This document shows, piece by piece, positions 5,611 to 56,289 of a stretch of 64,000 nt of DNA. This stretch comes from a virus. Each line of letters begins with the position of its first letter. Positions within the stretch are counted from its first letter, which is position 1. Made by a program: the position numbers and the translations under genes. The notes under the pieces were generated by a model. The model searched no databases. It saw only the letters and a list, made by a program, of their open reading frames with translations, and had not been told where the DNA came from. The DNA lies in the IMG/VR virus record IMGVR_UViG_3300037493_005727, positions 69,091 through 133,090 of that record; one strand, given 5' to 3'.

Positions 5611-6152
5611 TTGACCTCATTCATGTGAGTACGCGCCAGCTTAACTTCACGAACTACGGGACCAAGACGGAGCATCTCCTCCGAAGTGAATCCTGTACCA
5701 CGGATCCGGTTGCAGTCGCCACAACACGGAACGACGTTGCTCTGCGAATACTCTTTGGCGTCGTCTACCCGGTCAAGCCCATGGCCCCACAGAGGCAATG
5801 GGAAGCCGCAGTATCGGCACGCTTGTAGCCTCAGTACCGTGAACTCCTCGAAGGTGATGTTCCACACGATACCACGTTTCTTAGCTAGCCGCTTGCCCTC
5901 AGCGAATCTAGCGACAACCTTGATCTTCTGCGCCTTCTTTGCGGCTTTGCATTTATCAGTCTTGTTGTACGCCTGCTGGTACGCTTTACCTTCAGGACTG
6001 CGGCTCCGGGCTAAAGCGCTCTTTAGGTTGATCGGATCTGTATGGTACGCGTGCGCGTACGCCTTTCGCTCAGGGCGTTGCTGCCAGTGCTTGTTGCAGA
6101 GTCCCCGACCGTAGTGCTTAGCGCCACAGTCGGGGACGGTACAGAGCTTCAT
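5607..6152 (-). CDS. HNH endonuclease
   Basis: CRYCG...GLDRVDDAKEYSQSNVVPCCGDCNRIRG is an HNH core (His/Asn plus CxxC pairs), with an N-terminal CxxC...C-x2-H zinc knuckle. Confidence 0.75.
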   Translation of the reverse strand: MKLCTVPDCGAKHYGRGLCNKHWQQRPERKAYAHAYHTDPINLKSALARSRSPEGKAYQQAYNKTDKCKAAKKAQKIKVVARFAEGKRLAKKRGIVWNITFEEFTVLRLQACRYCGFPLPLWGHGLDRVDDAKEYSQSNVVPCCGDCNRIRGTGFTSEEMLRLGPVVREVKLARTHMNEVK

Positions 6153-21062: not shown

Positions 21063-21234
21063 CCGGGGCGGTGAGGAAGAAAGCGCACATCCTGAGGAAG
21101 TCTATCTTGTCGACAGCGACTTCTCGCTGATCGATGATGATGAACATCCATTTGTCTTCAGTCCCCTCGGCGAACTCGATGTCCTTGGGGTAGCTGTTGG
21201 AGCTGTCCTTCTGAAGCGTGAGTACGAGCTTCAT
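21022..21234 (-). CDS. small hypothetical protein
   Basis: 70 aa. ATGA overlap with the upstream gene at 21231-21234. Its tail overlaps the 3' end of 19908..21062 convergently. Confidence 0.35.
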   Translation of the reverse strand: MKLVLTLQKDSSNSYPKDIEFAEGTEDKWMFIIIDQREVAVDKIDFLRMCAFFLTAPATGQCVQTQGTGP

Positions 21235-22523
21235 GGGCGTACCTCCACTTTGTCCACATCTCCGAGGCGTCCATCAGACAGATGAGAGGCGACTTGGGAG
21301 ATCTTGGTAAGATCCGAGGTGTAGCGAGAAATCCAATTACCGTTCGTCCAAAGAACCGAAACGTAGCGGTCGTTACACCCCACAGCTGTGATGTATCTCC
21401 GATTCCCCCAACCGGTGGCCTGATAGCCGCGGCCAGTCTTGAGCGTGAGCCACAGCAGCGCTCGCAGCGTTGGATCTTTGACGGGCCCACGCTTCGCAGG
21501 CACGTCTGCTTCAATCAGCGCCAACCCAAAGGCCTTGGCGATGTCCTCGTACGTCTTGAGCATCCCGAACTCAGTGATTGACCCCTTGGCTCGGTGCACC
21601 GTCGCAACGACGCCGTCAGTGCCCTGTAGCTTGAGGCCTGTGAGCACAACGTTCCAGCGAGAGACCTTCGCGGTCTCCCCCATGTGCCGGGCAATCTCCC
21701 ATAGCTGCCACTCAGGCCAGGGGGATGCTTTCATCACCGCGGTGAGCCGACGGTCGGCTTCCTCGATGATGCTCGCTTCAGGCGGGTAGGCGCCCTTGCA
21801 GTGCGACGCCCTGTCGCAGCTGTCCTTGATGGGACATTTGACGCACTGCGTCTTCTTGAACCTCTTGGTGTCGGCTCCTTGAGTGGACGCCTCGGAGCGC
21901 TTCTTGTGGTTCTTCTCTGTTGCGTCGAAGTCGTGCTCCCAGTACGGGCGGATCGCCTTCGAGAATGCTTCTGTCCGTGTCGAACCAGGCTTCACGAGGG
22001 TGAACTCCCCCAGCTTGGTGTAGTGCTCCTGCACGTGCTCCCACAGGTCCTCAGCCTCGTGCGCTGGGGACAGCCTCGCTGGGAGCTCAATCCCGACTCC
22101 CTCAGACAAGCACTTCATCCCCTTGTCTGGGCAGTGCGTGCACCCCACCGCCTTGAACAAGGACAGGCACCGGTTGTAGCGCTGTCGCAGGTTCAGAGTG
22201 TATGGCTTCCCTTCGAGAAAGAATTGAAGATCCGGCGTATCGATCTTCGCGTCGTCCGGCAATTGCTCCGCAAGGTGCGTGGAGACGAGGACGAACTCCA
22301 TCTTCGGGGGCGTAGGCTTTTGGTTTCCCCACCAGCTGCTGTTGCGAGGCTGGGCGCCTGCGACCTGCGATACGAAGTACCCGTTTGAAAAGATCTTAGC
22401 GAGCTCCGGCAGGGCAGCTACCTTTTCGACGTCCAACGTCTCGAAGAGAAGAGAAGGGGTCGTAGAATCCTCCCGCCACCGGGATGAGTTGTTATCTGTG
22501 GCGGAACAGACGGTGTATCTCAT
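21231..22523 (-). CDS. hypothetical Cys-rich protein immediately downstream of the RT
   Basis: 430 aa with CTHCPDKGMKC and CVKCPIKDSCDRASHC clusters. ATGA overlap with the RT gene. Confidence 0.55.
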   Translation of the reverse strand: MRYTVCSATDNNSSRWREDSTTPSLLFETLDVEKVAALPELAKIFSNGYFVSQVAGAQPRNSSWWGNQKPTPPKMEFVLVSTHLAEQLPDDAKIDTPDLQFFLEGKPYTLNLRQRYNRCLSLFKAVGCTHCPDKGMKCLSEGVGIELPARLSPAHEAEDLWEHVQEHYTKLGEFTLVKPGSTRTEAFSKAIRPYWEHDFDATEKNHKKRSEASTQGADTKRFKKTQCVKCPIKDSCDRASHCKGAYPPEASIIEEADRRLTAVMKASPWPEWQLWEIARHMGETAKVSRWNVVLTGLKLQGTDGVVATVHRAKGSITEFGMLKTYEDIAKAFGLALIEADVPAKRGPVKDPTLRALLWLTLKTGRGYQATGWGNRRYITAVGCNDRYVSVLWTNGNWISRYTSDLTKISQVASHLSDGRLGDVDKVEVRP

Positions 22524-23716
22524 GTACCTGTCACCTCGAACGGTGGACTCTGGTTCTCGAGATCGACGGGTTCACTCTTCAGCTCCCCGTTTACGAACTC
22601 GAAGGAGGTGACGTCCTCCTGCTTGTGTGTCTCCTTCGCTTTCACGTAGAGCTTGAGCAGCTTCGCTGTCTTGTCCGGCGCGAACCGGGTGAAGTAGTTG
22701 AGCTTGCCTACGATCCACGCATGAAGCTGAGGTACAGACTCCTTCTTCGCGTACTTGAGCTGTGCCTCGAAGCCGTGCTGGTTCGCCTTGTAGAGGAGCA
22801 TGTGCATCTTGTTGTACTCGTTCGCTGGGATGTTCAGCTTACGATTGATGCTGATCCCCAAGAATCGTTGAGGACGCGACCAGTGCTGGACCTGCAGCTT
22901 CTTCCAGTTTACTCGGTAACCTGTGCTCTTGATGACGCGGTCAGCGGCTTGGATCACCTGAGAAACGTCGGGTGAGTTCAGCGGCTTGTCGTAGCTGAAG
23001 TACAGGTCGTCCGCGTACCTGGTGTAGCGCCACCCATCTGGTAGCGTCTTCATCAGCGGCTGGTCAATCTTCCAGTCGCACACCAGGTTGCAGATGTCCC
23101 CTGCCGTGAGCGCTCCCGGCGGAACACCGGTACGTGTCTTGTTCCGGTCGTCCCGGTAGTCGGTCGTGAGCAGCTGGCCCAAGAGCGACGAAGCGTAGTG
23201 GTTGTATCCAACGACCTCGTGGAAGTACTGGCGGATCCATGAACGGCGTGTCGACAAGAAGAAGTCCTTCAGGTCGAGCTTGAACTTGACCCCGCGTCGA
23301 GGGCAATCGTGCTTCACCGGGCTGGTGTGAGGCTTGGTCGTCTCGTCGCAGATCTTGCACTCGCGCAGGTGCAGTGACGCAGCGTCGATTGTGCTTTTAC
23401 CGAGCTGATAGGCCGCCACGTGCTGTCCCAGGTGTGTTGTCAGGGGCTGGAGGATGCGGCTCCGCATCTGCGCCTGGAAGATGCGCAGTAGGTCGTTGGG
23501 GTCGAAGGTTCGGCGCAGTCCGCCGGTCTTCTTCTTGACCATGAACTGCTTGTACATCTGGTCTCTGTGATCGACGATGTACCAGAACGTCTTTCCAGTG
23601 AACCCCAGCCGAAAGGCCAGAGTCCAGTCGTCGATGATGAACGGCACGTTGGGGAGATTTACGAGAGGAGCACGGACCTCGATCTTCTCGAGGAAGTTTT
23701 GTTTGTAGGTGGGCAT
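22520..23716 (-). CDS. reverse transcriptase (stand-alone prokaryotic RT, class unresolved; DGR-like motif 4)
   Basis: KKKTGGLRRTFDPNDLLRIFQAQMRSRIL (RT1-2), AAYQLGKSTIDAASLH (RT3), FKLDLKDFFLSTRR (motif A), GVPPGALTAGDICNLVCD (motif B', P-x-G-x-L-T-x4-N-L as in DGR RTs), RYADDLYFS (YADD catalytic box), FLGISI (motif D/E). Confidence 0.85.
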   Translation of the reverse strand: MPTYKQNFLEKIEVRAPLVNLPNVPFIIDDWTLAFRLGFTGKTFWYIVDHRDQMYKQFMVKKKTGGLRRTFDPNDLLRIFQAQMRSRILQPLTTHLGQHVAAYQLGKSTIDAASLHLRECKICDETTKPHTSPVKHDCPRRGVKFKLDLKDFFLSTRRSWIRQYFHEVVGYNHYASSLLGQLLTTDYRDDRNKTRTGVPPGALTAGDICNLVCDWKIDQPLMKTLPDGWRYTRYADDLYFSYDKPLNSPDVSQVIQAADRVIKSTGYRVNWKKLQVQHWSRPQRFLGISINRKLNIPANEYNKMHMLLYKANQHGFEAQLKYAKKESVPQLHAWIVGKLNYFTRFAPDKTAKLLKLYVKAKETHKQEDVTSFEFVNGELKSEPVDLENQSPPFEVTGT

Positions 23717-24345
23717 CAGTCTTCCTCAGCCAGCAGGTGGTTCTCAGTTGGAGGTGGCAGCGCCAACCCTTCCTGAAAGTGGTTGGTCATCCCGAGCCCC
23801 AGCGACGAGTAGCAAATGTCCTCGCCCAGGCGGCAGTGCCCGTTCTGGTGGTTGATGAAGTTGGGGCAGGCAACACACACCGGCCGAATGTTCTCGGTGG
23901 GCGTTTGCAGGTAGGTGAGCGCCGGGAACGGATCCGCGACTCCCACGGAGGATGCGCGCCGTCGTGAGCGTCGGGGCTTTGCCGGGTTGGTGGGGAGACG
24001 GTACTTGCCCGCGGCGGTGATGTACCGGGGCAAGTTGGACGCAACAAACTTGGCGAGAATGGGCACAGCCATCACCCAGTCCCCTGTCTCGAGAGCTTCT
24101 CGCCACTCCTCGTTGGTTGGCCCCTTCAGGTCATCGTTCCGATTGAACGCGTGCGTGTCGCCCGCTTCGATCTGAACGTGGTCCAGCAGCAGGTCCTTCA
24201 TGGTGTTCTCGACAGGCAATACCAGGGCGTAGCGAAACAGCTTCTTGAAGATGCTGTGTTCCCCGTTGCGAGCCAAATACACTCGATCAAAAGGGAACAC
24301 CTTTCCAGCCGCCTCGCGCTTGACGCGAAGACAGTACAGGTCCAT
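23716..24345 (-). CDS. hypothetical protein upstream of RT
   Basis: 209 aa. Overlaps the RT start by ATGA. CVACPNFINHQNGHC. Confidence 0.5.
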   Translation of the reverse strand: MDLYCLRVKREAAGKVFPFDRVYLARNGEHSIFKKLFRYALVLPVENTMKDLLLDHVQIEAGDTHAFNRNDDLKGPTNEEWREALETGDWVMAVPILAKFVASNLPRYITAAGKYRLPTNPAKPRRSRRRASSVGVADPFPALTYLQTPTENIRPVCVACPNFINHQNGHCRLGEDICYSSLGLGMTNHFQEGLALPPPTENHLLAEED

Positions 24346-29042: not shown

Positions 29043-29274
29043 GCTTCTTTGGTTTCTTCGGCTTCAGCTCCTCGGGGTCCTCGACGTAGTAGTTCTTTTC
29101 CCCGTTGGGGCATTCTTCGCGCATGACGACCAAGCAGCGATCAATACTCGCTTGACCGTCGCCGTAGGACTTCACTTCGTTTTGACAGCGCGTACAGGTC
29201 GCACAGACACTCGGGATACTCTGTCCGTGATCTCCCCGCCGGGAAATGTAGTCGATCTCACAGAGGACTTTCAT
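28978..29274 (-). CDS. hypothetical zinc-finger protein
   Basis: CATCTRC...C...CPNGEK. ATGA overlap with the MoxR gene stop at 29271-29274. Confidence 0.4.
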   Translation of the reverse strand: MKVLCEIDYISRRGDHGQSIPSVCATCTRCQNEVKSYGDGQASIDRCLVVMREECPNGEKNYYVEDPEELKPKKPKKPRASLSGFSAASFALGRTPKK

Positions 29275-30551
29275 GCCGTTTCCATCGGGTCTTTGCTCTT
29301 ACCCCGCCCGTGAATCTTCTTCTCTTGTTCGTCGTGAATCCGGTTGATGCGGTCGTTGATCTCCTTCCACAACGGGTACTGGCGATTCGCGACCGTGAGG
29401 TCCTGCATGTACTTCAGGTTCTTCGGTTCCCCGATTCCCCCATGAGCTTGACAGGCTGCGTCGAGCATGGCGTAGAACGGCTGCGCCTGCTCCACCGGCA
29501 TGTCATGCCAGAACTGAACGAGCTGCGGCGCGATGGTCTGGGGCTCAGGCCGTTCACGGAAGATGAACTGCGCGACCTCGTTGACCAGGCTGGTGTAGTC
29601 CCCGCCCGCCTCCTTCTGGAGGTCCAGAACACGAGAGCGGAGCTTGCTCTTCGGCTTGTAGTCGTAGAGCACCGCCTCCGGGGAGATGATGATCTCGTTG
29701 TTCTTGATGAAGGCGCAGAGCGTCTGCGCATTCACGGTGTTGATTGAGGCAGCCAGGCGGAGCTCAGCTTTCTCGCTGTGCAGGTCCACCTTCGCCGCCT
29801 CGAGGTTGTAGAGGGACAGCGAGACCGTCTGCCACGTGGCCGGGCAGGCGAACTGCTTGTTTCCGTCTCGGTCCTTGGCGGTGTACAACATCGCCGGTGT
29901 GGCAGTGAGCAGGCGCACCACCATGGGGTGGCAGGGGCGCCCGCCCTCGAAGTCCGTGTAGTGGAACTCCGGCGTGAGCGCGTGCTTCTTCCAGTCGCTG
30001 AACGTGTTGTACACGTACGCCTTCATCAGGCGGCGATTGAACGCCGAGTTGGTCTCGATCTTCGTGACGTTGTACCCCGCCGTTGAGGGATTCATCAGCG
30101 CGACAATGACGCAGTCGTCTGGTAGGGTGTAGTCGTAGATTCCCCGGTCCTCGAGGAACTTGAAGAACAGAGCGATTGCGTGCTGCTGCCCCTGGTTGAT
30201 TTCATCGAAGATGAGGATGCACTTCTCCCCCTGCTTGGGGTAGTCGTTCGGGATAGCGATCTTGAAGTGTCCCGTTTCATCTGCCCTCTGCGGAACACCG
30301 GCTCCGATCATGGAGAACTGCGACGTGCGAATGTCTACGACCCGCCTTCCGTGCTTCCGAGCGAGCTGGTGAATGCCCTGCGACTTCCCTTCTCCGGCTT
30401 CCGAGATGAGGCACCAAACCCCGCGGGTCTGCTCCATCTCGATGCTGAGGTCGATCTGCCACAGCGCTTCTGTCAGGGTCATGCGCGGGATTCCATAGCG
30501 ATCCCAGTACGCTTCTCCGTGAACGACTTTGTCCTGTGCTGCGTTGCTCAT
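29271..30551 (-). CDS. MoxR-like AAA+ ATPase
   Basis: ISEAGEGKSQGI (Walker A-like GxxGxGKS), ILIFDEINQGQQH (Walker B DE plus sensor), ALMNPSTAGYN...AFNRRL (MoxR/CbbQ-type arginine finger region). Confidence 0.8.
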   Translation of the reverse strand: MSNAAQDKVVHGEAYWDRYGIPRMTLTEALWQIDLSIEMEQTRGVWCLISEAGEGKSQGIHQLARKHGRRVVDIRTSQFSMIGAGVPQRADETGHFKIAIPNDYPKQGEKCILIFDEINQGQQHAIALFFKFLEDRGIYDYTLPDDCVIVALMNPSTAGYNVTKIETNSAFNRRLMKAYVYNTFSDWKKHALTPEFHYTDFEGGRPCHPMVVRLLTATPAMLYTAKDRDGNKQFACPATWQTVSLSLYNLEAAKVDLHSEKAELRLAASINTVNAQTLCAFIKNNEIIISPEAVLYDYKPKSKLRSRVLDLQKEAGGDYTSLVNEVAQFIFRERPEPQTIAPQLVQFWHDMPVEQAQPFYAMLDAACQAHGGIGEPKNLKYMQDLTVANRQYPLWKEINDRINRIHDEQEKKIHGRGKSKDPMETA

Positions 30552-30574
30552 GTCTGCCTCTTTGGTGGTGGTGT

Positions 30575-32191
30575 ATGACTCAAATGAACATCGGCACGAA
30601 GCGGTTGTCGGAAGTCGCAGAGGGTCTGCTCTGGCTGGACGGCGCCCCGTTCAGCTTGGATGACTACCCGATGTACCGGAACATCTACGACGGACGCTAC
30701 AAAGCGACTCTCCTGATGTGTGGCCGACAGGTGGCCAAGTCGACATCCCTGGCGAACTTCATCATCTCGGAGTCTGTCGCTCTTCCGTTCTTCCGGTCCT
30801 ACTACGTCTCTCCTTCAAAAGAGCAGACGCTGATCTTCTCTAACACACGTGTGGGTAAGACGCTTTCGTACTCCCCCATTGTGAAGAAGTTCTTCCAGTC
30901 CCCGGAGCACGCAGACCGCGTGCTTCACCGCTCGTACACCAACGGATCCGAGAACGCGTTCACCTACGCCTGTGATGACGCCGACCGCGCTCGAGGCTTC
31001 TCAGCTGATCGAGTCAGCTACGACGAGTTCCAGGACATGCTGTACGACTCAGTGGTTCCCGTCATCAACGCCTGCATGAAGAACTCGAACTACCGCTTCG
31101 AGACCTACGCAGGAACGCCGAAGACGATGGAAGCCAGCATCCAGTACCTCTGGGACAAGTCGTCTCAGAGCGAGTGGGTGATGAAGTGCGACGGCTGCTC
31201 GAAGTACAACTTCGTCGTCGACGAGAAGTCCCTAGGACTGCACGGGCCCATCTGCCTCAACTGCGGTAAGGTGCTCAACCCCCGTATCGGGCAGTGGGTC
31301 GACATGAAGAAGGTCGATTCCAAAACCGGGAGACACTCGGTGAAGGGGTTTCACATCCCCCAGCTGATCATGCCTCTGAACATCCCGTCTTGCGTGAACA
31401 ACACGCCGGAAAAGCCGGATGCCAAAAAAGACGCTCAAGAGCGTTGGGACGACATCCTTCGAGACCACGACATGTTCTCGTCGGCGAAGTTTCGCAACGA
31501 GGTGTTGGGAGTCTCTGACGCCATCGGTCGTCGTCTCATCTCTCTCGAGGAGCTTGAGGCTCTTTGTACGGGCCCTAAGATTTCAGCGTACCCCGACAAG
31601 AATCTCGAGGGATGCACCGTCACCTTCGCCGGGGTGGACTGGTCTGGCGGCGGGACCACTGGAGTAAGCCGCACCGTGCTTTGGATCTGGGGCTGGCACC
31701 CCGGCAGTCAGAAGCTACGGACGCTGTACTACCGCATCTACCCTGGCAACAACGCCGTCACGGACGTCGAGGACATCGCCAAGATTTGTCAGCAGTACTC
31801 AGTCGCTCTGGTTGTCGGAGACGCTGGAGAAGGCGCTCTGCCTAACGCCACCCTTCGCGCTCGCCTTGGTGCCCACCGAGTGACGATGGTGCAGTACGGC
31901 GCGCTGGGCCAGCCCATCAAGTGGAACGGTCTCGACCGATACTTGGCTGACCGAACCACGCTGATCGACAACTACCTCATGTTCCTGAAGAGAGGCGCGG
32001 TGGTCTACCCGCCACAGGAAGAGGCGCGGGAAGCCATCAAGGACATCCTCAACGTCTACGAAGAGGTGACCACCGCGGGCAAGAAGGTGTGGAGGCACAG
32101 CCCACAACTCCCAGATGATTGTCTCCACGCCCAGCTCTTTGGGTGGTTCGCCTCGAAGATTCACATGAACGACCTTAAGTTCTACGCTTAA
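30575..32191 (+). CDS. terminase large subunit
   Basis: LLMCGRQVAKSTSLANF (Walker A) and the T7 gp19-like ATPase/nuclease layout (...FQDMLYD..., DAGEG). The track ORF begins at 30536, but that would overlap the divergent MoxR start (30551). The Met at 30575, after GGTGGTGG, is preferred; the Met at 30584 is also possible. Confidence 0.75.
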   Translation: MTQMNIGTKRLSEVAEGLLWLDGAPFSLDDYPMYRNIYDGRYKATLLMCGRQVAKSTSLANFIISESVALPFFRSYYVSPSKEQTLIFSNTRVGKTLSYSPIVKKFFQSPEHADRVLHRSYTNGSENAFTYACDDADRARGFSADRVSYDEFQDMLYDSVVPVINACMKNSNYRFETYAGTPKTMEASIQYLWDKSSQSEWVMKCDGCSKYNFVVDEKSLGLHGPICLNCGKVLNPRIGQWVDMKKVDSKTGRHSVKGFHIPQLIMPLNIPSCVNNTPEKPDAKKDAQERWDDILRDHDMFSSAKFRNEVLGVSDAIGRRLISLEELEALCTGPKISAYPDKNLEGCTVTFAGVDWSGGGTTGVSRTVLWIWGWHPGSQKLRTLYYRIYPGNNAVTDVEDIAKICQQYSVALVVGDAGEGALPNATLRARLGAHRVTMVQYGALGQPIKWNGLDRYLADRTTLIDNYLMFLKRGAVVYPPQEEAREAIKDILNVYEEVTTAGKKVWRHSPQLPDDCLHAQLFGWFASKIHMNDLKFYA

Positions 32192-32378
32192 CAGCCAAGG
32201 CGTAGACATCTTCGATCAACTTGGCAAAGTCTTCGTAAGGCACGTAGCCTTCAACAGTTCCATGCCCTCGACAGGCGGGGCAGGCAACCATTTCTCCGTA
32301 TTCCCGCTGCCCTCCGGGGATCTTCTTTTCCCCGTGGCAGTACTCACATCCCAGACGAACAACGAACGACTTGATCAC
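32175..32378 (-). CDS. small DnaJ-type zinc-finger protein
   Basis: CEYCHGEKK...CPACRGHGTV (CxxCxGxG repeats). Probable GTG start after TAGGAGTCACC. Confidence 0.45.
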   Translation of the reverse strand: MIKSFVVRLGCEYCHGEKKIPGGQREYGEMVACPACRGHGTVEGYVPYEDFAKLIEDVYALAVKRRT

Positions 32379-32698
32379 GGTGACTCCTAAGCGCGCACGG
32401 TTCGGATCACCCGATCCGAAACCTGCGGCACGTGGTGACTCCTACGATTGTAATTCCCACACCCCCGGGAATTACATCACGGTACAGCTTTAGAGATCAT
32501 GACCGCACTACGCGGTCGGTGCTTTACAGCACTCTGAACGAATCACCAGAGCCAACAGAACTCTTCTTTGTTTTATCATCTGCAGCAGCTCGAGGCGGCC
32601 GCGGCGGACATCTTCGAGGAGGACCTCGTCGAAGCACGGCCGTATGAAAACATCCTGGGTGTAGCGAGAGCTAGGCTCTGCGTATCACCCACGGCCAA

Positions 32699-32742
32699 AA
32701 TGTCTCCACTACGGAGACGCCGGGTAGGTACCGGAGCAAGAG
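32699..32742. repeat. 42-bp hairpin-containing direct repeat, copy 1
   Basis: AATGTCTCCaCTACGGAGACGCCGGGTAGGTACCGGAGCAAGA contains a GTCTCC(g)...CGGAGAC stem-loop and a CCGG-GTAGGTA-CCGG element. An AGCTAGGCT box sits ~30 nt upstream. Confidence 0.6.
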
Positions 32743-32899
32743 TTCACGACGTTTCCCTTCTTTCCTCTTTGTTCTATCGGTCCGAGCTGGGACCTGGTCG
32801 AGGGGTCTTCTTGTTCGAGGAGCTCGAAGGAGCTCCCCAGTCAAGGATGACCCTCGTCGTCGGCAAAGCAGCTGGGCTGCGCGCCGACCGTAAGTGTTC

Positions 32900-32941
32900 A
32901 TGTCTCCGCTACGGAGACGCCGGATAGGTACCGGGGCAGGA
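32900..32941. repeat. 42-bp hairpin-containing direct repeat, copy 2
   Basis: ATGTCTCCGCTACGGAGACGCCGGaTAGGTACCGGgGCAgGA. An AGCTGGGCT box sits upstream. Confidence 0.6.
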
Positions 32942-33090
32942 AAGGTAAGGCAGATCTTCTGAGTTCCAACATGTCTGAAGAGCTCGGCGATGGCGCTGCA
33001 TAACGAAAGCCTCCAACGCGGCTAACAGCTCGTCCCTCGAGGACGTCCAGGTGTCGAAGTAGCTAGGCTACAAGACACCACCGGGAGGGA

Positions 33091-33134
33091 AATGTCTCCG
33101 CTACGGAGACGCCGGGTAGGTACCGGAGCAAGAT
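33091..33134. repeat. 42-bp hairpin-containing direct repeat, copy 3
   Basis: AATGTCTCCGCTACGGAGACGCCGGGTAGGTACCGGAGCAAGA. AGCTAGGCT upstream. Ends 12 bp before the exonuclease gene stop. Confidence 0.6.
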
Positions 33135-33145
33135 CTTTTATCGAA

Positions 33146-33709
33146 TCACTTCGCCGCCGTGGCCCACTTCTCCATCAGCTTCAGGTAGACCTGTCGGCAA
33201 GCTTCGGCGTCCGCGAGCGCCCTGTGCTGCGGCTTCGCGTCGACTCCGAGGAACGAACACAGCTTCTCAAGGCTCAGCCCAGGCAACCCCGTGTAGCAGA
33301 ACAGAGGCCAGGCCAGCGCCACCGTATCCACCTTGTGGTAGCCCCATGGCGGCTTCATTCCAAGTCGCACGAACAGGGGCGAAAGAAAGCCCTCGTCAAA
33401 CGACACGTTCTGCCCGACCAGCACCGTGTTGCCCGCCATCTGCTGGAGAGCATCCACGACGATCTCCGGCTTCACGCACTTCTCGTCCGTCCACTCCTCG
33501 GGCTTGTAGTTGTTGACCTGCAGAGCTTTGGGCTCGGCAGTCTCGAGGTGGAGTGGCTTCAGCTTCGCTTCGAACGTCTTGATGATGGTCTTCCCATCAG
33601 GGCTTGTGCGGATCGCTGCCACTTCCAGCAGTTCGTGCTTCGTGGGGTCCAGCCCCGTCGTTTCCGTGTCCACGAACAGCAGGTCCTGCGGCTTGTTTGT
33701 CGGGAGCAT
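33146..33709 (-). CDS. DnaQ-like 3'-5' exonuclease (DEDDh family)
   Basis: LLFVDTETTGL (Exo I), VLVGQNVSFDEGFL (Exo II), HRALADAEAC (Exo III, H-x4-D). Confidence 0.8.
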   Translation of the reverse strand: MLPTNKPQDLLFVDTETTGLDPTKHELLEVAAIRTSPDGKTIIKTFEAKLKPLHLETAEPKALQVNNYKPEEWTDEKCVKPEIVVDALQQMAGNTVLVGQNVSFDEGFLSPLFVRLGMKPPWGYHKVDTVALAWPLFCYTGLPGLSLEKLCSFLGVDAKPQHRALADAEACRQVYLKLMEKWATAAK

Positions 33710-33938
33710 TCTTGGCCTGGTACATCGAGACTATGTGCTTTCGCTGCACACAGGTTTTGGGTGAAATGATCAGTGACTTGCGGTCGTGCTTGATGAGTCT
33801 CCCCGTCAAGCAGCCACCTGTCACGGTGAACACCTTTACGAGGGTGTCTTTCCACTCATCGAGGATGTCATCCTGGATCGGCTTATACTTCGGCAAGCGC
33901 GGTTCGGACTTCTTCCTCCGTGTAGGCTTCGGCGGCAT
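33597..33938 (-). CDS. questionable small ORF overlapping the pol/exonuclease junction
   Basis: 113-aa ORF. Its N-terminal half (KVFTVTGGCLTGRLIKHDRKSLIISPKTCVQ) looks protein-like, but it overlaps the exonuclease gene by >100 nt and its tail is G/A/P-rich. It may be an overprinted gene, a frameshifted C-terminus, or an artefact. Confidence 0.2.
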   Translation of the reverse strand: MPPKPTRRKKSEPRLPKYKPIQDDILDEWKDTLVKVFTVTGGCLTGRLIKHDRKSLIISPKTCVQRKHIVSMYQAKNAPDKQAAGPAVRGHGNDGAGPHEARTAGSGSDPHKP

Positions 33939-48201: not shown

Positions 48202-51200
48202 ATGGCGCTGACATCCGTGCTCACCGATGCCGAGTCCCGGCGGACTCAAATCCGAGCGAAAGCGCTTGAGGCGCTCCGCGCCGCCTTTCCCTTGCCCCTT
48301 AGGGACAAGCAGATCCAAGTCTCTGATCTGCAGGTCCACCACAAAGACTACGGGCCGAACGACCAGAAGCAGGCGCTGCTCAGCGGCGGATCCCTCTTCG
48401 AGCCCGTCAAGGGGACCATCACTCTTCGAGGCGCTGACGGCAAAGAGATCGAGAAGGTAAAAGGTTTTACCTTGCTCAACCTCCCGTTCTTCACTGGGCG
48501 GCACACCTTCATCTTGGACGGCAACGAGTACAACGTCTCAAACCAGCTCCGTCTGAAGCCGGGCGTGTACACTCGACGGCGAGGAAACGAAGAGCTCGAA
48601 GCGGCCTTCAACCTTTCGAAGGGGGCTAACTTTCGGTTGTCCCTGGACCCCGCCCAAGGGCACCCGTACGTCGAGTACGGAACTACCGCCATTCCGCTTT
48701 ACTCAGTATTGCGGAAGTTGGGAGTCCCGCACGCAGACATCTCGTCGCACTGGGGATCCGATGTAGCGGGGCAGAACGAGGCTGCGTTCGCAGGGAAGCA
48801 CGACAAGCACCTCGCCAAGCTCTACGAGAAAGTGACGCATCCGTCCAAGCGCACGGCCACCAACCCTGAGACGCAACTAGAGGCAGTGCGCGCCGCTTAC
48901 GCTGCGACCGCGATGGACCCTGAGGTCAACAAGGAGACTCTGGGGCACGAGTTCTCGTCGGTCACCCCTCAGGCGCTGCTGGTTGCGTCGAAGCGCCTCC
49001 TCAACGTCTACAAGAACAACGCCCCTGTAGATGATCGTGACGCTCTGCAATTCAAGACCTATCACTCGGTCGACGACTTCATCAAAGAGCGCATCACTCT
49101 CGACGCCCGAGCCCTGGCCAGCAAGGTGAAAGGGCGGGCGACGCACAAGACCGGGCTCCGAGAAATCCTCCCGTCGTCGCCTTTCTCTGGTGGCATCCGG
49201 AGCTTCCTCACCGGCTCACAGCTGAGCTCGATTCCGACGCACATCAACCCGATGGAGGCCATTGATCACGCCGTTAGGGTTACTTCTCTGGGTGAAGGCG
49301 GCATTGCCAACGAACGGGCAATCCCCGCAGAAGCCCGAACCATCCACTCAAGCCATCTCGGTATCCTGGACCCGATTCGTACCTCAGAGTCGTTCCGTGC
49401 AGGCATCGACATCCGTACGGCATTCGGGGCTCATCGGGATGAGCGAGGGAATCTGTACACGATGGTAAAGGATGTGAAAACAGGTAAGGGGGTCATGCTC
49501 TCGGCGTCTGAGATGTCTAGCGCCGTGGTGGCATTCCCGAAGCAGAAGATGTCTGGGATGATCGCCGCGATGGACAAGGGAGAAGTCGCTCACGTCCCTG
49601 CGTCCAAGGTGACCCACGAACTCTACGACGCTGCTCAGCTCTACTCTCCCGCGACGAACCTCGTACCCTTCCTCGAGTCTGTTCAGGGGAACCGTGGAAT
49701 CATGGGCGGCAAGGTTCAGACGCAGGCTCTACCGCTCGTTCACAGAGAAGCTCCCCTCGTACAGTCGGGGGTCTCTTCATCGGACAAGAACGGACAAAGC
49801 ATCAGCTGGGAGCGGCAGCTCGCTCACCTCGCGCTCCCCGTTTCTCCCGTTGCAGGGAAGGTAGTGAAGATCGACGGGCAGTACATCTACATCGACCCGT
49901 CTGGGAAGAAGCACGCTGAGGACTTCGGGATCGAGAAGAACTCGTTCGAGAAGCGCGGCGGGGCAGTCAAACGACAGAAGACCATCAAAGGACTTTGCTT
50001 CAAGCTTGAGCTCGAGCCTGGAGACATCCGCTCTGGCGTATCCCCCGAAGGTAAGAAGTGGGAGAAGAAGATGTCCCTCGCCTACGGGCACATTCCCAAG
50101 ACGGTTGGGGATGACGGCGAGACCGTAGACATCTACTTGAAGGAAGATGGCGTCTTCGATCACGTGTACGTTGTTCGTCAGAAGAAGCGCGACGGATCAC
50201 ACGATGAAGATAAGTGCATGGTGGGGTTCGACTCGAAGGACGCCGCGAAAGACGCCTACGAGAAGCACGGACCGGAATGGGGTTACGGGTCGTTGGAAGA
50301 GTATACCTGGGATGAGTTCCAGGACGACTACCTTTCAGAGCGGCAGCGCGAGAAGGCCGCTGCTGAGAAGGATCTCGTACGCGTTCCGTATGACAGCAAC
50401 TTGCCTTTCGCGTCCAAGACCTATCTACACCACGATCTCTTAGTGAAGCCGGGGGACCACGTCACCGCTGACCAGCATCTCGCTGAGTCCAACTTCACGC
50501 GGGACGGCGCCTTTGCTCTGGGCCGCAACATGACCATCGGGTACATCCCTTACTACGGGATGAACTCGAACGACGCTGTCGTCATTTCGGAGGGCGCTGC
50601 GGACAAGCTCACGTCTGAGCACATGTACAAGGAGATCGTTGAAGTCGAGAGGGACGCAATCGTGGGGCGCGACGTCCACCAGCAGTACTACGGGCCCAAG
50701 TACACCGCGGAACAGTACCGCAAGCTCGACGCCAACGGCGTAGTACGCAAGGGCATGAAGGTGATGCCTCACGACATCCTGATCGCCGGAGTTACCAAAG
50801 GAAAACTTTCCGCGTCAGACGCCCTGCTAGGCAACCTGAAGAAGACTCTGGTTCACCCCTATCGCGAGCTCGTTCGCACCTGGGATCACGACTACGAGGG
50901 GGACGTCATCGACGTGCACGTCACAGACAAGCGCGTCGTGGTGACCGTTAGGACGAAAGAGCCGATGCGCGTCGGCGACAAGCTCACGGGACGGCACGGA
51001 AACAAGGGCGTTGTTTCCATGATCGTACCGGACCACAAGATGCTTCAGGATGAGAAGGGTAAGCCGCTCGAGGTGCTCTACACCTCAGCAGGCGTCATCT
51101 CGCGTATCAACCCGGCGCAGATTCTTGAAACGGTGGTAGCCAAGGTCGCCAAGAAGATTGGGAAGCCCATCATCGTTGAGAACTTCTCGGGGAGGGACAA

Positions 51201-53016
51201 CGTGCAGTGGGCGAAGGACTTGCTCAAAGAGCACGGGGTCAAGGACAAGGAAACGCTTTTCGACCCTGTCTCTGGGAAGAAGATCCCCGGCATTCTGGTT
51301 GGGCCGCAGTTCGTGCTCCGCTTGTTCAAAACCACGGAGACTAACTTCGCAGCCCGCGGCACGGGGGCCTACGACGTCAACCAGCAGCCCATCAAAGGCG
51401 GAGACGAGGGCGCAAAGGCCGTCGGCAAGATGGAGTTCAATGCACTGGTTGCGCACAACGCCCGTAACGTGCTGCGAGAGACAGCGACGATCAAGAGTCA
51501 GAAGAACGACGAGTTCTGGCGCTGCGTCCAGTTGGGGCTACCGCTCCCTCCGCTGAAGTCTTCGTTCGCCTACGACAAGTTCGTGGGAATGCTCCACGGG
51601 GCAGGAGTGAAAGTGGACACCCGGGGGAGTGTGAGCACTCTGTCTCCTTTGACGGACCACGACATCCTGAAGATGTCCTCCGGCGCGATTCAGAACGAGA
51701 AGCTGGTTCGGGCCAAGGATCTCGCCCCTGAGCGCGGAGGCTTGTTCGACCCGGCGGTGACGGGCGGGACCGTCGGTACCCGCTGGAGCCACATCGAGCT
51801 CGCCGAGCCCATCATCAACCCCATCTTCGCTGACCCCGCTCGCCGTTTGCTCGGGATGACGTTGAAGGAGTTCGACAAGTTTCACCACGACAATGGTGGG
51901 GCGCAGATCAAGAAAAAGCTAAACGCCATCAACGTGAGTGGGCGTATCGACGAGCTGCGGAGCTCCATCAAGAAGTTGAACGGGGTGAAGCTCGACGACG
52001 CAGTGAAGCAGCTCAAGTTCCTAGAGGCTCTGCACCGGCAGAAGCTCCAGCCTGGGGACGCCTACGTGCTGTCCAAGCTCCCAGTTCTGCCTCCGCTCAT
52101 GCGTCCGATCCTCCCAGGAAAGAGCGGGTCTGAGCTCGTCGTAGGGGATTCGAACTACCTCTACCAGAGCGCCATGCTCCACAACCGCTCACTCCAGCGG
52201 CAGGTCGACTCTCCTGTTCTCCCCCCCGATGAGCACGCCAAGCTGCGGCAGAATCTCTTCAACGCAGTGGGCGCCGTCGTCGGAACGCACGAGTCCGACA
52301 ACCCCAAGCTCTTGAAGCGCAACGTGAAGGGTCTGCTCGAGCACCTCACGGGGAAGACGACTCCGAAGAGCAGCTACTTCCAGAAGAAGATCATGAAGCG
52401 GCAGCAGGACATCTCCGGGCGCGGAACCATCGCTCCTGACGGGTCCTTGGGCATGGACGAGATCGGTCTCCCAGAAGACATGCTCTGGGGGATGTACGGG
52501 AAGTTCGTAATCGCTCGTTTGGTTCGTCGAGGCTTTGGCGCCGTCGCTGCGAAGGAGATGGTGGAGAAGAAGCACCCCGCGGCGCACGACGCGCTGATGG
52601 CCGAGCTCAAAGAACGCCCCGTGATGGTGAACCGCGCCCCCACACTGCATCGGTACGGCTTTGTTGGCGCCAACCCTGTGCCCGTGGCGGGTAAGACGAT
52701 CCGGGTGAACCCCTTCATCGAGCTCGGAATGAACGCCGACTATGACGGCGACACCTTCCAGATTCACGTCCCAGTTCTTCCTGGGGCCGTGCAAGAGGTG
52801 AAGGGGATGACTCTCTCCAATCTTCTCTTCTCTGACCGAGAGAAGGATAGCTTGATGGTCGCTCCCCGCATGGAGGCTATGCTAGGAGTTCACCTGGCTT
52901 CCAAAGCAGAAGGATCTGCCAACGGGCAGACTCACAAGTACAAAACGAAGGCGGACGCCATGGCAGCATACAAACGTGGTGAGATCACGCTCAGCTCGAA
53001 GGTAGAGGTAGGCTAA
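48202..53016 (+). CDS. fused multisubunit RNA polymerase beta subunit + N-terminal half of beta' subunit
   Basis: 1604 aa. Beta: ...SLGEGGIANERAIPAEARTIHSSHLGILDPIRTSESFRAGIDIRTA, LVPFLESVQGNRGIMGGKVQTQALPLV, MRVGDKLTGRHGNKGVVSMI, GKMEFNALVAHNARNVLRETATIKSQKND. Beta'-N: HIELAEPIINPIF, MVNRAPTLHRYGF, NADYDGDTFQIHVPV (the catalytic Mg triad). The usual N-terminal beta' zinc-finger cysteines are absent. Confidence 0.9.
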   Translation: MALTSVLTDAESRRTQIRAKALEALRAAFPLPLRDKQIQVSDLQVHHKDYGPNDQKQALLSGGSLFEPVKGTITLRGADGKEIEKVKGFTLLNLPFFTGRHTFILDGNEYNVSNQLRLKPGVYTRRRGNEELEAAFNLSKGANFRLSLDPAQGHPYVEYGTTAIPLYSVLRKLGVPHADISSHWGSDVAGQNEAAFAGKHDKHLAKLYEKVTHPSKRTATNPETQLEAVRAAYAATAMDPEVNKETLGHEFSSVTPQALLVASKRLLNVYKNNAPVDDRDALQFKTYHSVDDFIKERITLDARALASKVKGRATHKTGLREILPSSPFSGGIRSFLTGSQLSSIPTHINPMEAIDHAVRVTSLGEGGIANERAIPAEARTIHSSHLGILDPIRTSESFRAGIDIRTAFGAHRDERGNLYTMVKDVKTGKGVMLSASEMSSAVVAFPKQKMSGMIAAMDKGEVAHVPASKVTHELYDAAQLYSPATNLVPFLESVQGNRGIMGGKVQTQALPLVHREAPLVQSGVSSSDKNGQSISWERQLAHLALPVSPVAGKVVKIDGQYIYIDPSGKKHAEDFGIEKNSFEKRGGAVKRQKTIKGLCFKLELEPGDIRSGVSPEGKKWEKKMSLAYGHIPKTVGDDGETVDIYLKEDGVFDHVYVVRQKKRDGSHDEDKCMVGFDSKDAAKDAYEKHGPEWGYGSLEEYTWDEFQDDYLSERQREKAAAEKDLVRVPYDSNLPFASKTYLHHDLLVKPGDHVTADQHLAESNFTRDGAFALGRNMTIGYIPYYGMNSNDAVVISEGAADKLTSEHMYKEIVEVERDAIVGRDVHQQYYGPKYTAEQYRKLDANGVVRKGMKVMPHDILIAGVTKGKLSASDALLGNLKKTLVHPYRELVRTWDHDYEGDVIDVHVTDKRVVVTVRTKEPMRVGDKLTGRHGNKGVVSMIVPDHKMLQDEKGKPLEVLYTSAGVISRINPAQILETVVAKVAKKIGKPIIVENFSGRDNVQWAKDLLKEHGVKDKETLFDPVSGKKIPGILVGPQFVLRLFKTTETNFAARGTGAYDVNQQPIKGGDEGAKAVGKMEFNALVAHNARNVLRETATIKSQKNDEFWRCVQLGLPLPPLKSSFAYDKFVGMLHGAGVKVDTRGSVSTLSPLTDHDILKMSSGAIQNEKLVRAKDLAPERGGLFDPAVTGGTVGTRWSHIELAEPIINPIFADPARRLLGMTLKEFDKFHHDNGGAQIKKKLNAINVSGRIDELRSSIKKLNGVKLDDAVKQLKFLEALHRQKLQPGDAYVLSKLPVLPPLMRPILPGKSGSELVVGDSNYLYQSAMLHNRSLQRQVDSPVLPPDEHAKLRQNLFNAVGAVVGTHESDNPKLLKRNVKGLLEHLTGKTTPKSSYFQKKIMKRQQDISGRGTIAPDGSLGMDEIGLPEDMLWGMYGKFVIARLVRRGFGAVAAKEMVEKKHPAAHDALMAELKERPVMVNRAPTLHRYGFVGANPVPVAGKTIRVNPFIELGMNADYDGDTFQIHVPVLPGAVQEVKGMTLSNLLFSDREKDSLMVAPRMEAMLGVHLASKAEGSANGQTHKYKTKADAMAAYKRGEITLSSKVEVG

Positions 53017-54489: not shown

Positions 54490-56289
54490 ATGGCGCAAAC
54501 TCTCGGCAAGTACCTTGTAAACGATCTCCTTCCCACCAAGCATCACATCACGGGGACGTTGAACAAGAAGGAGTTCCAGCAGAAGATGCTGGCACTCGCG
54601 CAGGAAGACCCCGCCGGGTACGTCGAGATCGTTTCCAAGCTGAAGTCTCTGGGTGACGACATCTCTACGCTGGAGGGCATCTCAGTAGGGTTGGACGACA
54701 TCACCCCGGCGTACAAATCCCGCGATGCCATCATGGCGCCGGGAATCGCCGCGATGAAGAACGCTGTCGGGCGTGACGCCAAAGAGAAGATCATTCTCGA
54801 CGTACAAAAGAGAATGCTCGAGCACACCAAGGTACACCCGGGGTCAATGACGGCGATGGCGCTCTCTGGGGCGCGTGGAAACATTCCCCAGCTGATGAAG
54901 ACCATCGCATCCCCAGTTGCTACGACTACGGGGAAGGGGGACATCAACCCCTGGCTCATCAGTCGGTCGTACGCCGAGGGCCTCTCCGCGGCTGACCACT
55001 GGGCCGCAGGAAACGAAGCTCGACACAACACCGTCCAGACGTACACCGCCATCGCGGAGCCTGGCGACATGTCGAAGGTCATGACCAACAATATGTACCC
55101 GATGGTCATCACCAAGGACGACTGCGGCACGCACAACGGTTTGGCGATGGACAGTCACGACGGAAACATCGTCGACCGGTACCTTTCACGGGATCAGGCC
55201 GGATACCACCGGAACGACGTCGTGACGAAAGCCGTCGCCTCCAAACTCCAGGCCAAGGTGAAGAAGGTCTACGTCCGCTCACCCATGACTTGCGACGCCA
55301 CCGACGGGATCTGCCGCAAGTGCCAGGGGCTTGATGAGCGGGGGCGCCCTCACGCGATCGGCGTCAACGTTGGCGTTCGAGCTGCTCAATCTATCTCCGA
55401 GCCTCTGACCCAAATGGCTCTCGGGGCCAAGCACGGAATGCGCGTCTTGAAGGGCGCGTCGCCCAAACTGGAAGGCATCGCTGGCATCCGTCAGCTCCTG
55501 GAAGTTCCTCAGAGCTTCATCAACAAGGCGCCTCTAGCTGAACACGCGGGTACGGTGACTAAGATCGTTCCTGCGTCCCATGGCGGAACGCACGTCTACG
55601 TGGACGCGGTGCAGCACTACGCTGGTCCTAACTTGAAAATCCTGGTAACCCCGGGACAGAAAGTCGAGGCAGGCGATGTCCTCTCAGAAGGGATCCCGAA
55701 GCCAGATGAGCTCATTCACCACAAGGGTTTTGGTGCGGGACGACAGTACCTCGTGGACACACTTCATGACATCTATTCCGGTCAAGGAATCAACGTCGAC
55801 AAGCGGCACCTTGAGCTGGTCGCCCGCGCAGACCTCAACCACGTCAAAATTCTCGAGCATTCGGATGAGCACCCTGAGCTCGTAAAGGGGGAGACGCTCC
55901 CCTATTCCACGTACCGTGATGCGGCGCGGAGTCGCAACAAGCTGCTCCCCTTGGCCCAAGCGGAAGGCGCTGTACTCGGTAAAGAGGTTCTTCACTTCAC
56001 CGTAGGTACTCGACTGTCTTCCTCCGTCATCAACACCCTTCGGGCACACGACATCAAGGAAGTTGAAGCGACGTCAACGCTCCCGAGAGTTGAGTTTCTG
56101 ATGCGCCCGATGGCGCGAAATCCTCTCCTGCATCCGGACTGGATGGCGCGACTGGCGCACCGGTACCTGAAAGACAGCCTGCTGCAGGGAGCCCGAACGG
56201 GCGCGGCATCAGACCGCCACAGCACGCACCCAGTACCCGCCTATGCTTACGGCGCTGAATTCGGGATCGGACCTGAGGGGCACTACTGA
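54490..56289 (+). CDS. RNA polymerase beta' subunit, C-terminal half
   Basis: ALSGARGNIPQLMKTI...YAEGLSAADHWAAGNEARHN...VITKDDCGTHNGL aligns with E. coli beta' GARG...FREGL...HGARKG...TEDDCGT (bridge-helix/F-loop region). The downstream trigger-loop-like G-rich segment is also present. Confidence 0.85.
   Translation: MAQTLGKYLVNDLLPTKHHITGTLNKKEFQQKMLALAQEDPAGYVEIVSKLKSLGDDISTLEGISVGLDDITPAYKSRDAIMAPGIAAMKNAVGRDAKEKIILDVQKRMLEHTKVHPGSMTAMALSGARGNIPQLMKTIASPVATTTGKGDINPWLISRSYAEGLSAADHWAAGNEARHNTVQTYTAIAEPGDMSKVMTNNMYPMVITKDDCGTHNGLAMDSHDGNIVDRYLSRDQAGYHRNDVVTKAVASKLQAKVKKVYVRSPMTCDATDGICRKCQGLDERGRPHAIGVNVGVRAAQSISEPLTQMALGAKHGMRVLKGASPKLEGIAGIRQLLEVPQSFINKAPLAEHAGTVTKIVPASHGGTHVYVDAVQHYAGPNLKILVTPGQKVEAGDVLSEGIPKPDELIHHKGFGAGRQYLVDTLHDIYSGQGINVDKRHLELVARADLNHVKILEHSDEHPELVKGETLPYSTYRDAARSRNKLLPLAQAEGAVLGKEVLHFTVGTRLSSSVINTLRAHDIKEVEATSTLPRVEFLMRPMARNPLLHPDWMARLAHRYLKDSLLQGARTGAASDRHSTHPVPAYAYGAEFGIGPEGHY

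Follow-up and report, generated by a model that had tools for sequence, protein, structure and literature searches.

Tandem folded modules with covarying stems at the terminase-exonuclease junction of an uncultivated phage clade

What occupies the non-coding gap between the large terminase gene and the replication operon of an uncultivated phage, and in what form it acts, are the questions raised by virus record IMGVR_UViG_3300037493_005727, of which one strand of 64,000 nucleotides (nt), positions 69,091 to 133,090, was analysed and is referred to here as the window. A sequence-only reading of the window had noted three hairpin-bearing direct repeats in this gap, some 200 bp apart, and had offered them as a packaging (pac) site, a replication origin or an array of promoters or terminators. 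The three copies are real: cores of 43-44 nt lie at 32698-32741, 32898-32941 and 33090-33133, spaced by 200 and 192 nt and 86-98% identical, where the number of matches expected by chance is zero. Each contains the stem-loop GTCTCC(R)CTA(C)GGAGAC and has AGCTRGGCT ~28 nt to its 5' side (32669, 32870 and 33061), as had been described. Three repeats nevertheless understate the locus, as the cores belong to modules 1-3 of four homologous tandem modules that together span 32379-33136. Given that the core hairpin, termed H1, is found four times (at 32501, 32702, 32902 and 33094), the modules number four and not three, the one overlooked being a diverged copy upstream (module 0, H1 at 32501-32517). 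Also overlooked were a long-range helix that closes every module, the folding of the AGCTRGGCT box itself into a covarying hairpin, and the period as that of whole folded modules of ~190 nt. It is rather probable, on the evidence below, that the four modules, each of ~170-190 nt, fold independently and that they form a conserved single-stranded structure, most likely RNA, matching no described family.

On the plus strand a module reads in the order P1 5' arm, CTTTG-type box, variable hairpins, long stem, H1, H2, an unpaired C and P1 3' arm, and the expectation that the repeat units fold is borne out in that each module is closed and multi-hairpin. P1 is the long-range closing helix; its arms, ~170 nt apart, are a 7-8-nt arm just 5' of a CTTTGTT-type box and an arm just 3' of the core, and its sequence is unlike in every module of the array. 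The long stem is capped by an xxAGC-TRG-GCTxx hairpin, H1 has the general form of a 6-7-bp stem with the loop RYTRC (in the window, a 6-bp stem with the loop RCTAC, as ACTAC or GCTAC), and the consensus of H2 is YCGG-NNNGGTA-CCGR. Modules are ~170-190 nt long in the window and ~90-250 nt overall, by way of the variable internal hairpins, and the gap from one module to the next is just 6-14 nt.

Support for these helices comes from covariation. From an alignment of 16 modules RNAalifold predicted 22 pairs, which make up H1, H2, the AGCTRGGCT-box hairpin with its flanks and the long-range P1; 11 of the 22 show changes on both sides, P1 among them, and pair counting on the same alignment gave standard pairs in 98.3% of cells. 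The covariation score was 0.421 against 0.131 in shuffles, none of 500 shuffles reached that value, and sliding the partners as a control gave at most 0.136. P1 was found as 6-14 contiguous Watson-Crick pairs in 39 modules of 10 genomes, with arms of mutually unrelated sequence flanked by a CT..G box at one side and a single C at the other; this C was imposed by the search in the set of 39 and is invariant, immediately preceding the P1 3' arm, in 16/16 aligned modules. The P1 sequence of each window module is retained in the orthologous modules, and in more distant arrays the arms are unrelated in sequence and still paired. Likewise, 59 H1 hairpins comprise at least eight distinct stem sequences with conserved loops. 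Folding of the window region, compared with shuffles, gave z = -6.5, and the mean for single modules was z = -3.5 on the plus strand. The helices are real and are maintained through compensatory substitutions. Given that the loops are conserved and the stems covary, the element appears to work as a folded single strand, most likely RNA.

The array is not confined to this genome. When public viral and metagenomic contigs were scanned with the core pattern, four more distinct genomes (L001=L006, L002=L007, L003=L004 and L005) proved to have the core in the same gene context, and scans for relatives of the terminase and of a reverse transcriptase (RT) of the phage added L095, L098, L106, L107, L108 and L113. 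Eleven related phage genomes have such arrays, with 3 to at least 11 modules each, and across array-bearing relatives the identity to the window is 69-92% for the terminase or 39-80% for the RT. Close relatives have four copies of H1 and L002 has five, at a period of 187-203 nt. The site is constant, between the 3' termini of the convergent terminase and exonuclease/polymerase genes, and the clade consists of phages of ~150-190 kb that encode their own multisubunit RNA polymerase. Among genomes whose terminases are 87-92% identical, the modules match one-to-one by position, and in L097 (terminase identity 56%) the same place is taken by a different sequence that is extremely structured (z = -10.1). 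The sequence-only reading had left room for doubt should relatives lack the repeats; in related phages they are present and structured. It had also suggested a search for additional copies, and none was found elsewhere in the 64-kb window, whether as H1-type hairpins or as AGCTNGGCT boxes. Beyond the clade, no full core was found in 185,579 bacterial and archaeal genomes (one per species), and mimicry of a host sequence or a CRISPR repeat was rejected, the 83 single hits there to a 20-nt sub-pattern being about what chance gives. GenBank phages showed no DNA similarity to the array, and at the closest cultured terminases (29-31% identity) genes follow directly.

Several of these relatives show features of their own. 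The near-identical contigs L096 and L097 differ, at 5740 in the former and 5740-5870 in the latter, by one unit of ~130 nt bounded by GGTACTGCTGTG boxes, which indicates that a unit was recently gained or lost when repeats recombined. The contigs L092, L095 and L096 terminate 200-370 nt past the terminase stop codon, within the array, and these ends could be assembly breaks at the repeats or physical genome ends. At 1808-3179 of L113 there are at least 11 H1 hairpins, of the form GGCGCT-GTTAC-AGCGCC, and no H2, a small GGRC-GNA-GYCC hairpin followed by TAAGG standing before each H1; neighbouring P1 arms there appear to overlap by ~5 nt, and adjacent closing helices would then be mutually exclusive. 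In L098 (2405-5194) the terminase frame is 930 amino acids long and query residues from ~161 onward align to its C-terminal part, so that it may be extended at its N terminus or contain an insertion, for instance an intein.

Which strand carries the structure is less clear. The plus strand is the better folded one for 30 of 39 whole modules and for the variable part of 32 of 39, the mean module z on the minus strand being -2.6, and it is slightly rich in G+T. The short distance from the terminase stop codon to the array (0-3 nt in six relatives) points to the same strand. H1 speaks for the other strand: 48 of the 59 hairpins are perfect, and all 11 imperfect ones have an A.C in plus notation, which is a G.U on the minus strand, with G.T or any other mismatch in 0/11 (p = 0.001; for inner positions alone 8:0, p = 0.008). 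Variation between A and G at the H1 loop edge is common and corresponds on the minus strand to G.U against G-C. The minus strand is also indicated by the type of mismatch in P1 of module 0 and by the minus-strand GGTGACTCCT ribosome-binding site of a neighbouring zinc-finger gene. Among helices predicted on both strands, 12 G.T and 7 A.C were counted (19/665 cells), with 5 against 7 in generic hairpins and 2 against 0 in P1. A strand call from the wobble pairs of all helices was rejected, as none is decisive except H1 (0 vs 11), which contradicts the folding energies. The transcripts converging from either side may both run into the array, H1 being active on the minus strand.

Four considerations weigh against a conserved single-stranded RNA structure. 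First, the strand signals clash, H1 wobble pointing to the minus strand and folding to the plus. Second, there are few wobble pairs overall, fewer than is usual in an RNA, and this rarity would also fit constraint on both strands or on DNA. Third, in L110 the terminase and exonuclease-side genes abut, with no array and no non-coding gap, and the array is therefore dispensable in that lineage. Fourth, its transcription, its strand and any processing are what we infer. The locus concerned in L110 (1755-4214) lies on a 180-kb contig of a more distant relative with an RT 31% identical; its polymerase also has a UDG domain.

The array does not encode protein. As had been supposed, the region is non-coding, given that the lengths of the indels separating orthologous modules are not divisible by three and that the open reading frame (ORF) loses its ATG in relatives, and the ORFs generated by the repeats are spurious, the ATG of the 'MSPLRRRR' ORF being absent from relatives; a coding role was accordingly rejected, the repeat ORFs being unconserved and their frame broken by indels. 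The duplicated GGTGACTCCT box (32379 and 32434) and the hairpins at 32401-32420 and 32449-32476 are all present as described. The mini-ORF proposed between the two boxes does not hold up, being wholly different in L002, whereas the hairpin there covaries, and GGTGACTCCT as a general ribosome-binding context was rejected, the box being present only here within the window. No described RNA was recognised either. ARAGORN found 0 tRNA or tmRNA genes across the whole window. Rfam includes phage pRNA, retron msr, 6S, Y RNA, self-cleaving ribozymes and riboswitches; Rfam 15 gave no match to the window at the gathering score, only chance-level hits to small nucleolar RNAs, small RNAs and internal ribosome entry sites at E<=10 over 32150-33250, and nothing at E<=0.05 in the arrays of L098, L107 and L113. 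No description of such arrays was found in the published literature.

Among the alternatives, the one that survives best, and an unlikely one, is that the array is a site on DNA for packaging or replication, at which extruded hairpins would be recognised by the terminase, a primase or an initiator. In every genome the array directly adjoins the large terminase gene and the replication operon, a gene for a small terminase is not apparent next to the large one, and the stem pairs are nearly all Watson-Crick on both strands, as a cruciform requires; the contigs that end inside the array (L092, L095 and L096) and the different module number of near-identical genomes (one unit fewer in L096 than in L097) could be taken in the same sense. 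Contig ends in tandem repeats are, however, the expected assembly breaks, and P1 pairs sites ~170 nt apart and covaries freely, which is hard to select in duplex DNA. Variable stems with conserved loops are moreover the reverse of a dimeric DNA-binding site, the opposite of what the proposed pac site, or a cosB or iteron bound by protein as duplex, would lead one to expect. Given the 11:0 asymmetry in H1, one strand matters more than the other and a symmetric cruciform is unlikely. The proposal of a replication origin finds no better footing: the region has no AT-rich unwinding element (GC 0.57), its period of ~190-200 nt is not that of an iteron-type origin, and the minimum of the cumulative GC skew lies elsewhere, near 48-49 kb.

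A second alternative, doubtful and a little less probable than a DNA-level site, is that the modules are minus-strand, retron-like msr-msd template RNAs, copied in trans by the phage RT into small single-stranded DNAs (ssDNAs). The window encodes, within a phage operon, a retron-type RT of 398 amino acids on the minus strand (22520-23716), whose best matches are retron RT models (PADLOC RT_XIII, 6.5e-46; NCBIfam retron St85 RT, 9e-33), and there is no non-coding gap beside its gene to house its RNA. Its neighbours lie at 21231-22523 and 23716-24345, the 430-amino-acid one having a faint DDE-transposase hit. Eight genomes (the window, L104-L109 and L113) have both RT and array, ~8-9 kb from each other, although such co-occurrence in close relatives is expected from common ancestry alone. 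Retron RNAs have terminal inverted repeats, one to three msr hairpins and a structured msd, and are contiguous with their RT, which carries the motifs NAxxH and VTG (PMC7736814). Read on the minus strand, a module fits this layout, with end-pairing arms, an unpaired G, two hairpins and a structured part: P1 of 6-14 bp in 39 modules stands for the terminal inverted repeats, H2 and H1 come next, and the C before the P1 3' arm, invariant in 16 modules, becomes a candidate unpaired G by the closing helix. The likeness extends to size (~100-250 nt), paired ends, short conserved hairpins and a variable structured part, and to a retron-type RT in the same genome and on the same strand as the minus reading. 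The H1 wobble pairs fall exclusively on the RT strand (11:0), and the mixed strand signals would be explicable if the template half were also selected as plus-sense DNA.

Against this, the array lies 8.7 kb from the RT with the opposite-strand terminase gene between them, and 4-11 tandem copies are present where a retron has one; no natural multi-copy retron RNA array is known. The RT itself is 26-29% identical to bacterial retron RTs, and of its motifs YADD is present, FLG replaces VTG and NAxxH is only approximated, as AASLH. The arrays have no match in Rfam, which includes an msr family. L110 has kept its RT (31% identity), and an array is missing there both from the terminase junction and from within 10 kb of the RT; L111 has an RT with no array within 10 kb. 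The RT family is conserved in a large clade of metagenomic phages of ~150-196 kb, with more than 110 protein clusters at 31-100% identity. Given this clade-wide presence of the RT, L110 and L111 without an array, the missing VTG and the lack of contiguity, the retron link is kept as a rival. If it were true, several different small ssDNAs would be made during infection, a retron turned to viral use, and these could, for example, be decoys against host defences. A diversity-generating retroelement at the RT was rejected, there being no pair of template and variable repeats.

That each repeat is instead a phage-specific promoter or terminator for the phage RNA polymerase, N4-style hairpins included, is very improbable. 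The phage does encode a multisubunit RNA polymerase, and the site between convergent operons is one where termination is needed. The promoters of the N4 virion polymerase, a single-subunit enzyme, have a stem of 5-7 bp and, on the template strand, a 3-nt loop centred on a purine; the minus-strand H1, whose stem is 7 bp long and whose 3-nt loop nearly always has A at its centre, presumably resembles them. Yet no N4-type single-subunit polymerase was seen in the window, the polymerase there being multisubunit, and transcripts started at H1 would split every P1, the best-supported helix. A scan of 31800-33800 for intrinsic terminators gave two sites, not above shuffles and both outside modules 1-3, and one for sigma-70 promoters (-35/-10 hexamers with 16-18-nt spacing) gave 0 sites, although the phage's own promoter type may differ. 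Consensus scans thus leave the array with no sigma-70-like promoter and no hairpin-plus-T-run terminator, and the earlier suggestion of a promoter or terminator array is not supported. Given that just 6-14 nt separate the modules, transcription units of their own would not fit. Elsewhere in the window no gene was found to have the CTTTGTT box upstream. An AR9-type late promoter, of consensus AACA-N6-TA/G (PMC5312081), was rejected, the box resembling it loosely and not lying upstream of genes. Taken as a whole, the sequence-only interpretation is partly supported.

A local repeat, selfish or neutral and comparable to a REP sequence or a miniature transposable element, amplified in a tolerant spot with no phage function, would suit the variable copy number (3 to at least 11), the array missing from L110 and the inverted repeats that flank each unit, and it is an equally remote prospect: one-to-one correspondence of modules across genomes with terminases 87-92% identical, with structure kept by compensatory changes, speaks for long-term purifying selection on pairing and not for recent amplification, the flanking inverted repeats differ among modules and so offer no transposase site in common, and no copy lies elsewhere in the 64 kb.

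With these alternatives weighed, a folded, single-stranded and probably RNA element remains the favoured reading, and it may be compared with known systems. Phi29 prohead RNA is alike in being ~170 nt long, with the 5' end paired to the 3' end, several helices that meet at a junction and hairpins whose loops are conserved; the array is encoded beside the packaging ATPase gene. The two differ in that no sequence or covariance-model similarity was found (Rfam), in the tandem array here against a single gene, and in the packaging enzyme, gp16 in phi29 and a gpA-type terminase with a nuclease here. In prohead RNA two loops at a three-way junction pair between molecules; a like kissing of UAG and CUA loops was rejected here, since it is not kept in relatives with the H1 loops GTTAC or GTTGC. 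Phage tRNA arrays and the stable RNAs of T4 share tandem small units, an end-pairing helix, short linkers and a large phage genome; here, in contrast to tRNA arrays, ARAGORN found no tRNA, the units are 90-250 nt with 4-6 helices, and T-loop, anticodon loop and CCA are absent. REP/BIME elements and structured 3' untranslated regions are similar as clusters of imperfect palindromes between convergent operons, and roles like theirs, in transcript stabilisation and insulation, are plausible, although REP units are hairpins of ~35 nt in hundreds of copies genome-wide and the array consists of large, closed modules with long-range pairing at a single locus. TIGR and CRISPR arrays, also found in phages, are likewise built of tandem units in which conserved segments alternate with variable ones. 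A TIGR unit measures 36 nt, has box C/D motifs and sits next to a Nop-domain protein (PMC12045711). In CRISPR arrays the repeats and spacers measure tens of nt, as against a period of ~190 nt and structured variable parts here. A TIGR or CRISPR array was rejected, given the period of 187-203 nt, the terminase, zinc-finger and exonuclease neighbours and the lack of a Cas or Nop-domain protein nearby.

Within the window, the diverged module 0 extends over 32379-32547 and is closed by P1 arms GGTGACTC (32379-32386) and GAATCACC (32540-32547). Its interior holds hairpin A (32401-32420), the second GGTGACTCCT box (32434-32443), hairpin B (32449-32476), H1 (32501-32517) and an H2 variant, GTGC..GCAC (32520-32533); the stem sequences of hairpins A, B and H1 differ among five close genomes with pairing kept. 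In the P1 of module 0 a C.A mismatch on the plus strand, equal to a G.U pair on the minus strand, is conserved, and in L106 this helix is fully Watson-Crick (AGGGATTC/GAATCCCT). Module 1 (32558-32745) has the P1 arms GAACTCTT (32558-32565) and AAGAGTTC (32738-32745), the box CTTTGTT at 32566-32572, an AGAGC-TAG-GCTCT hairpin (32667-32679) within a longer stem GGGTG/CACCC, H1 at 32702-32718, H2 as CCGG-GTAGGTA-CCGG at 32720-32734 and the unpaired C at 32737. In module 2 (32760-32944), CTTTCCT (32760-32766) pairs with AGGAAAG (32938-32944), and between them lie the box CTTTGTT (32767-32773), a GCAGC-TGG-GCTGC hairpin (32868-32880), H1 (32902-32918), H2 (32920-32934) and the unpaired C (32937). 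Module 3 (32952-33136) is closed by AGATCTT (32952-32958) and AAGATCT (33130-33136) and has the box CTGAGTT at 32959-32965, a GTAGC-TAG-GCTAC hairpin at 33059-33071, H1 at 33094-33110, H2 at 33112-33126 and the unpaired C at 33129.

The conserved left neighbour of the array is the large terminase gene, with a gpA-type ATPase (30575-32191, plus strand), and the conserved right neighbour, convergent with it, is a DEDD 3'-5' exonuclease gene (33146-33709, minus strand), the last gene of the family A DNA polymerase operon, whose stop codon is 9 nt from the end of module 3. Between terminase and array lies a minus-strand gene for a 67-amino-acid CxxC zinc-finger protein (32175-32378; weak match to anti-TRAP and the DnaJ zinc finger), which overlaps the terminase 3' end by 17 nt and whose ribosome-binding site, in the window and in L002, is the first GGTGACTCCT box read on the minus strand. 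Found in the window and L002 alone, this gene is an insertion that lies outside the array proper. In relatives without it (L003, L005, L006, L095, L097 and L106) the array starts 0-3 nt past the terminase stop codon, and in L003, L005 and L006 its place is taken by a third GGTGACTCCT box and additional AGC-TNG-GCT hairpins. Terminase and array form a solitary plus-strand island with minus-strand genes around. The divergent gene for a 426-amino-acid AAA-type ATPase (29271-30551; PHROG ATPase, 4.6e-36) is separated from the terminase gene by a gap of only ~23 nt (window 30536-30575), and the promoter of each must therefore lie inside the coding sequence of the other. The multisubunit RNA polymerase is encoded on the plus strand at 48202-53016 and 54490-56289: a 1604-amino-acid protein fuses beta-like and N-terminal beta'-like domains, with an inorganic-pyrophosphatase-like domain (PF18823) inserted at residues 589-708, and a separate protein of 599 amino acids has the beta' C-terminal domain.

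As a working model, our best guess is an untranslated RNA, at the place where the convergent operons meet, that binds protein multivalently, insulates, or does both. It would be the untranslated tail of transcripts from one abutting operon or from both, as suggested by stop codons that both lie within ~10 nt of the array in some genomes and by modules that are 6-14 nt apart. Each module would fold while being made, the distinct P1 of each preventing mispairing between neighbours, and the array would display over and over the conserved loop of H1 and the junction at P1, where one base is unpaired. In its most likely role the array RNA would bind a phage or host protein, acting as a scaffold or sponge, and it could simultaneously insulate and stabilise the ends of both converging transcripts.

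That the array is a previously undescribed structured element of one uncultivated clade of phages of ~150-190 kb is well supported, and phage genomes are not known to contain large closed RNA modules in tandem arrays. The numerous natural variants already yield a secondary structure backed by covariation, and the constant position at the junction of packaging and replication genes hints at a part in a core process, be it transcript handling, packaging, replication or counter-defence.

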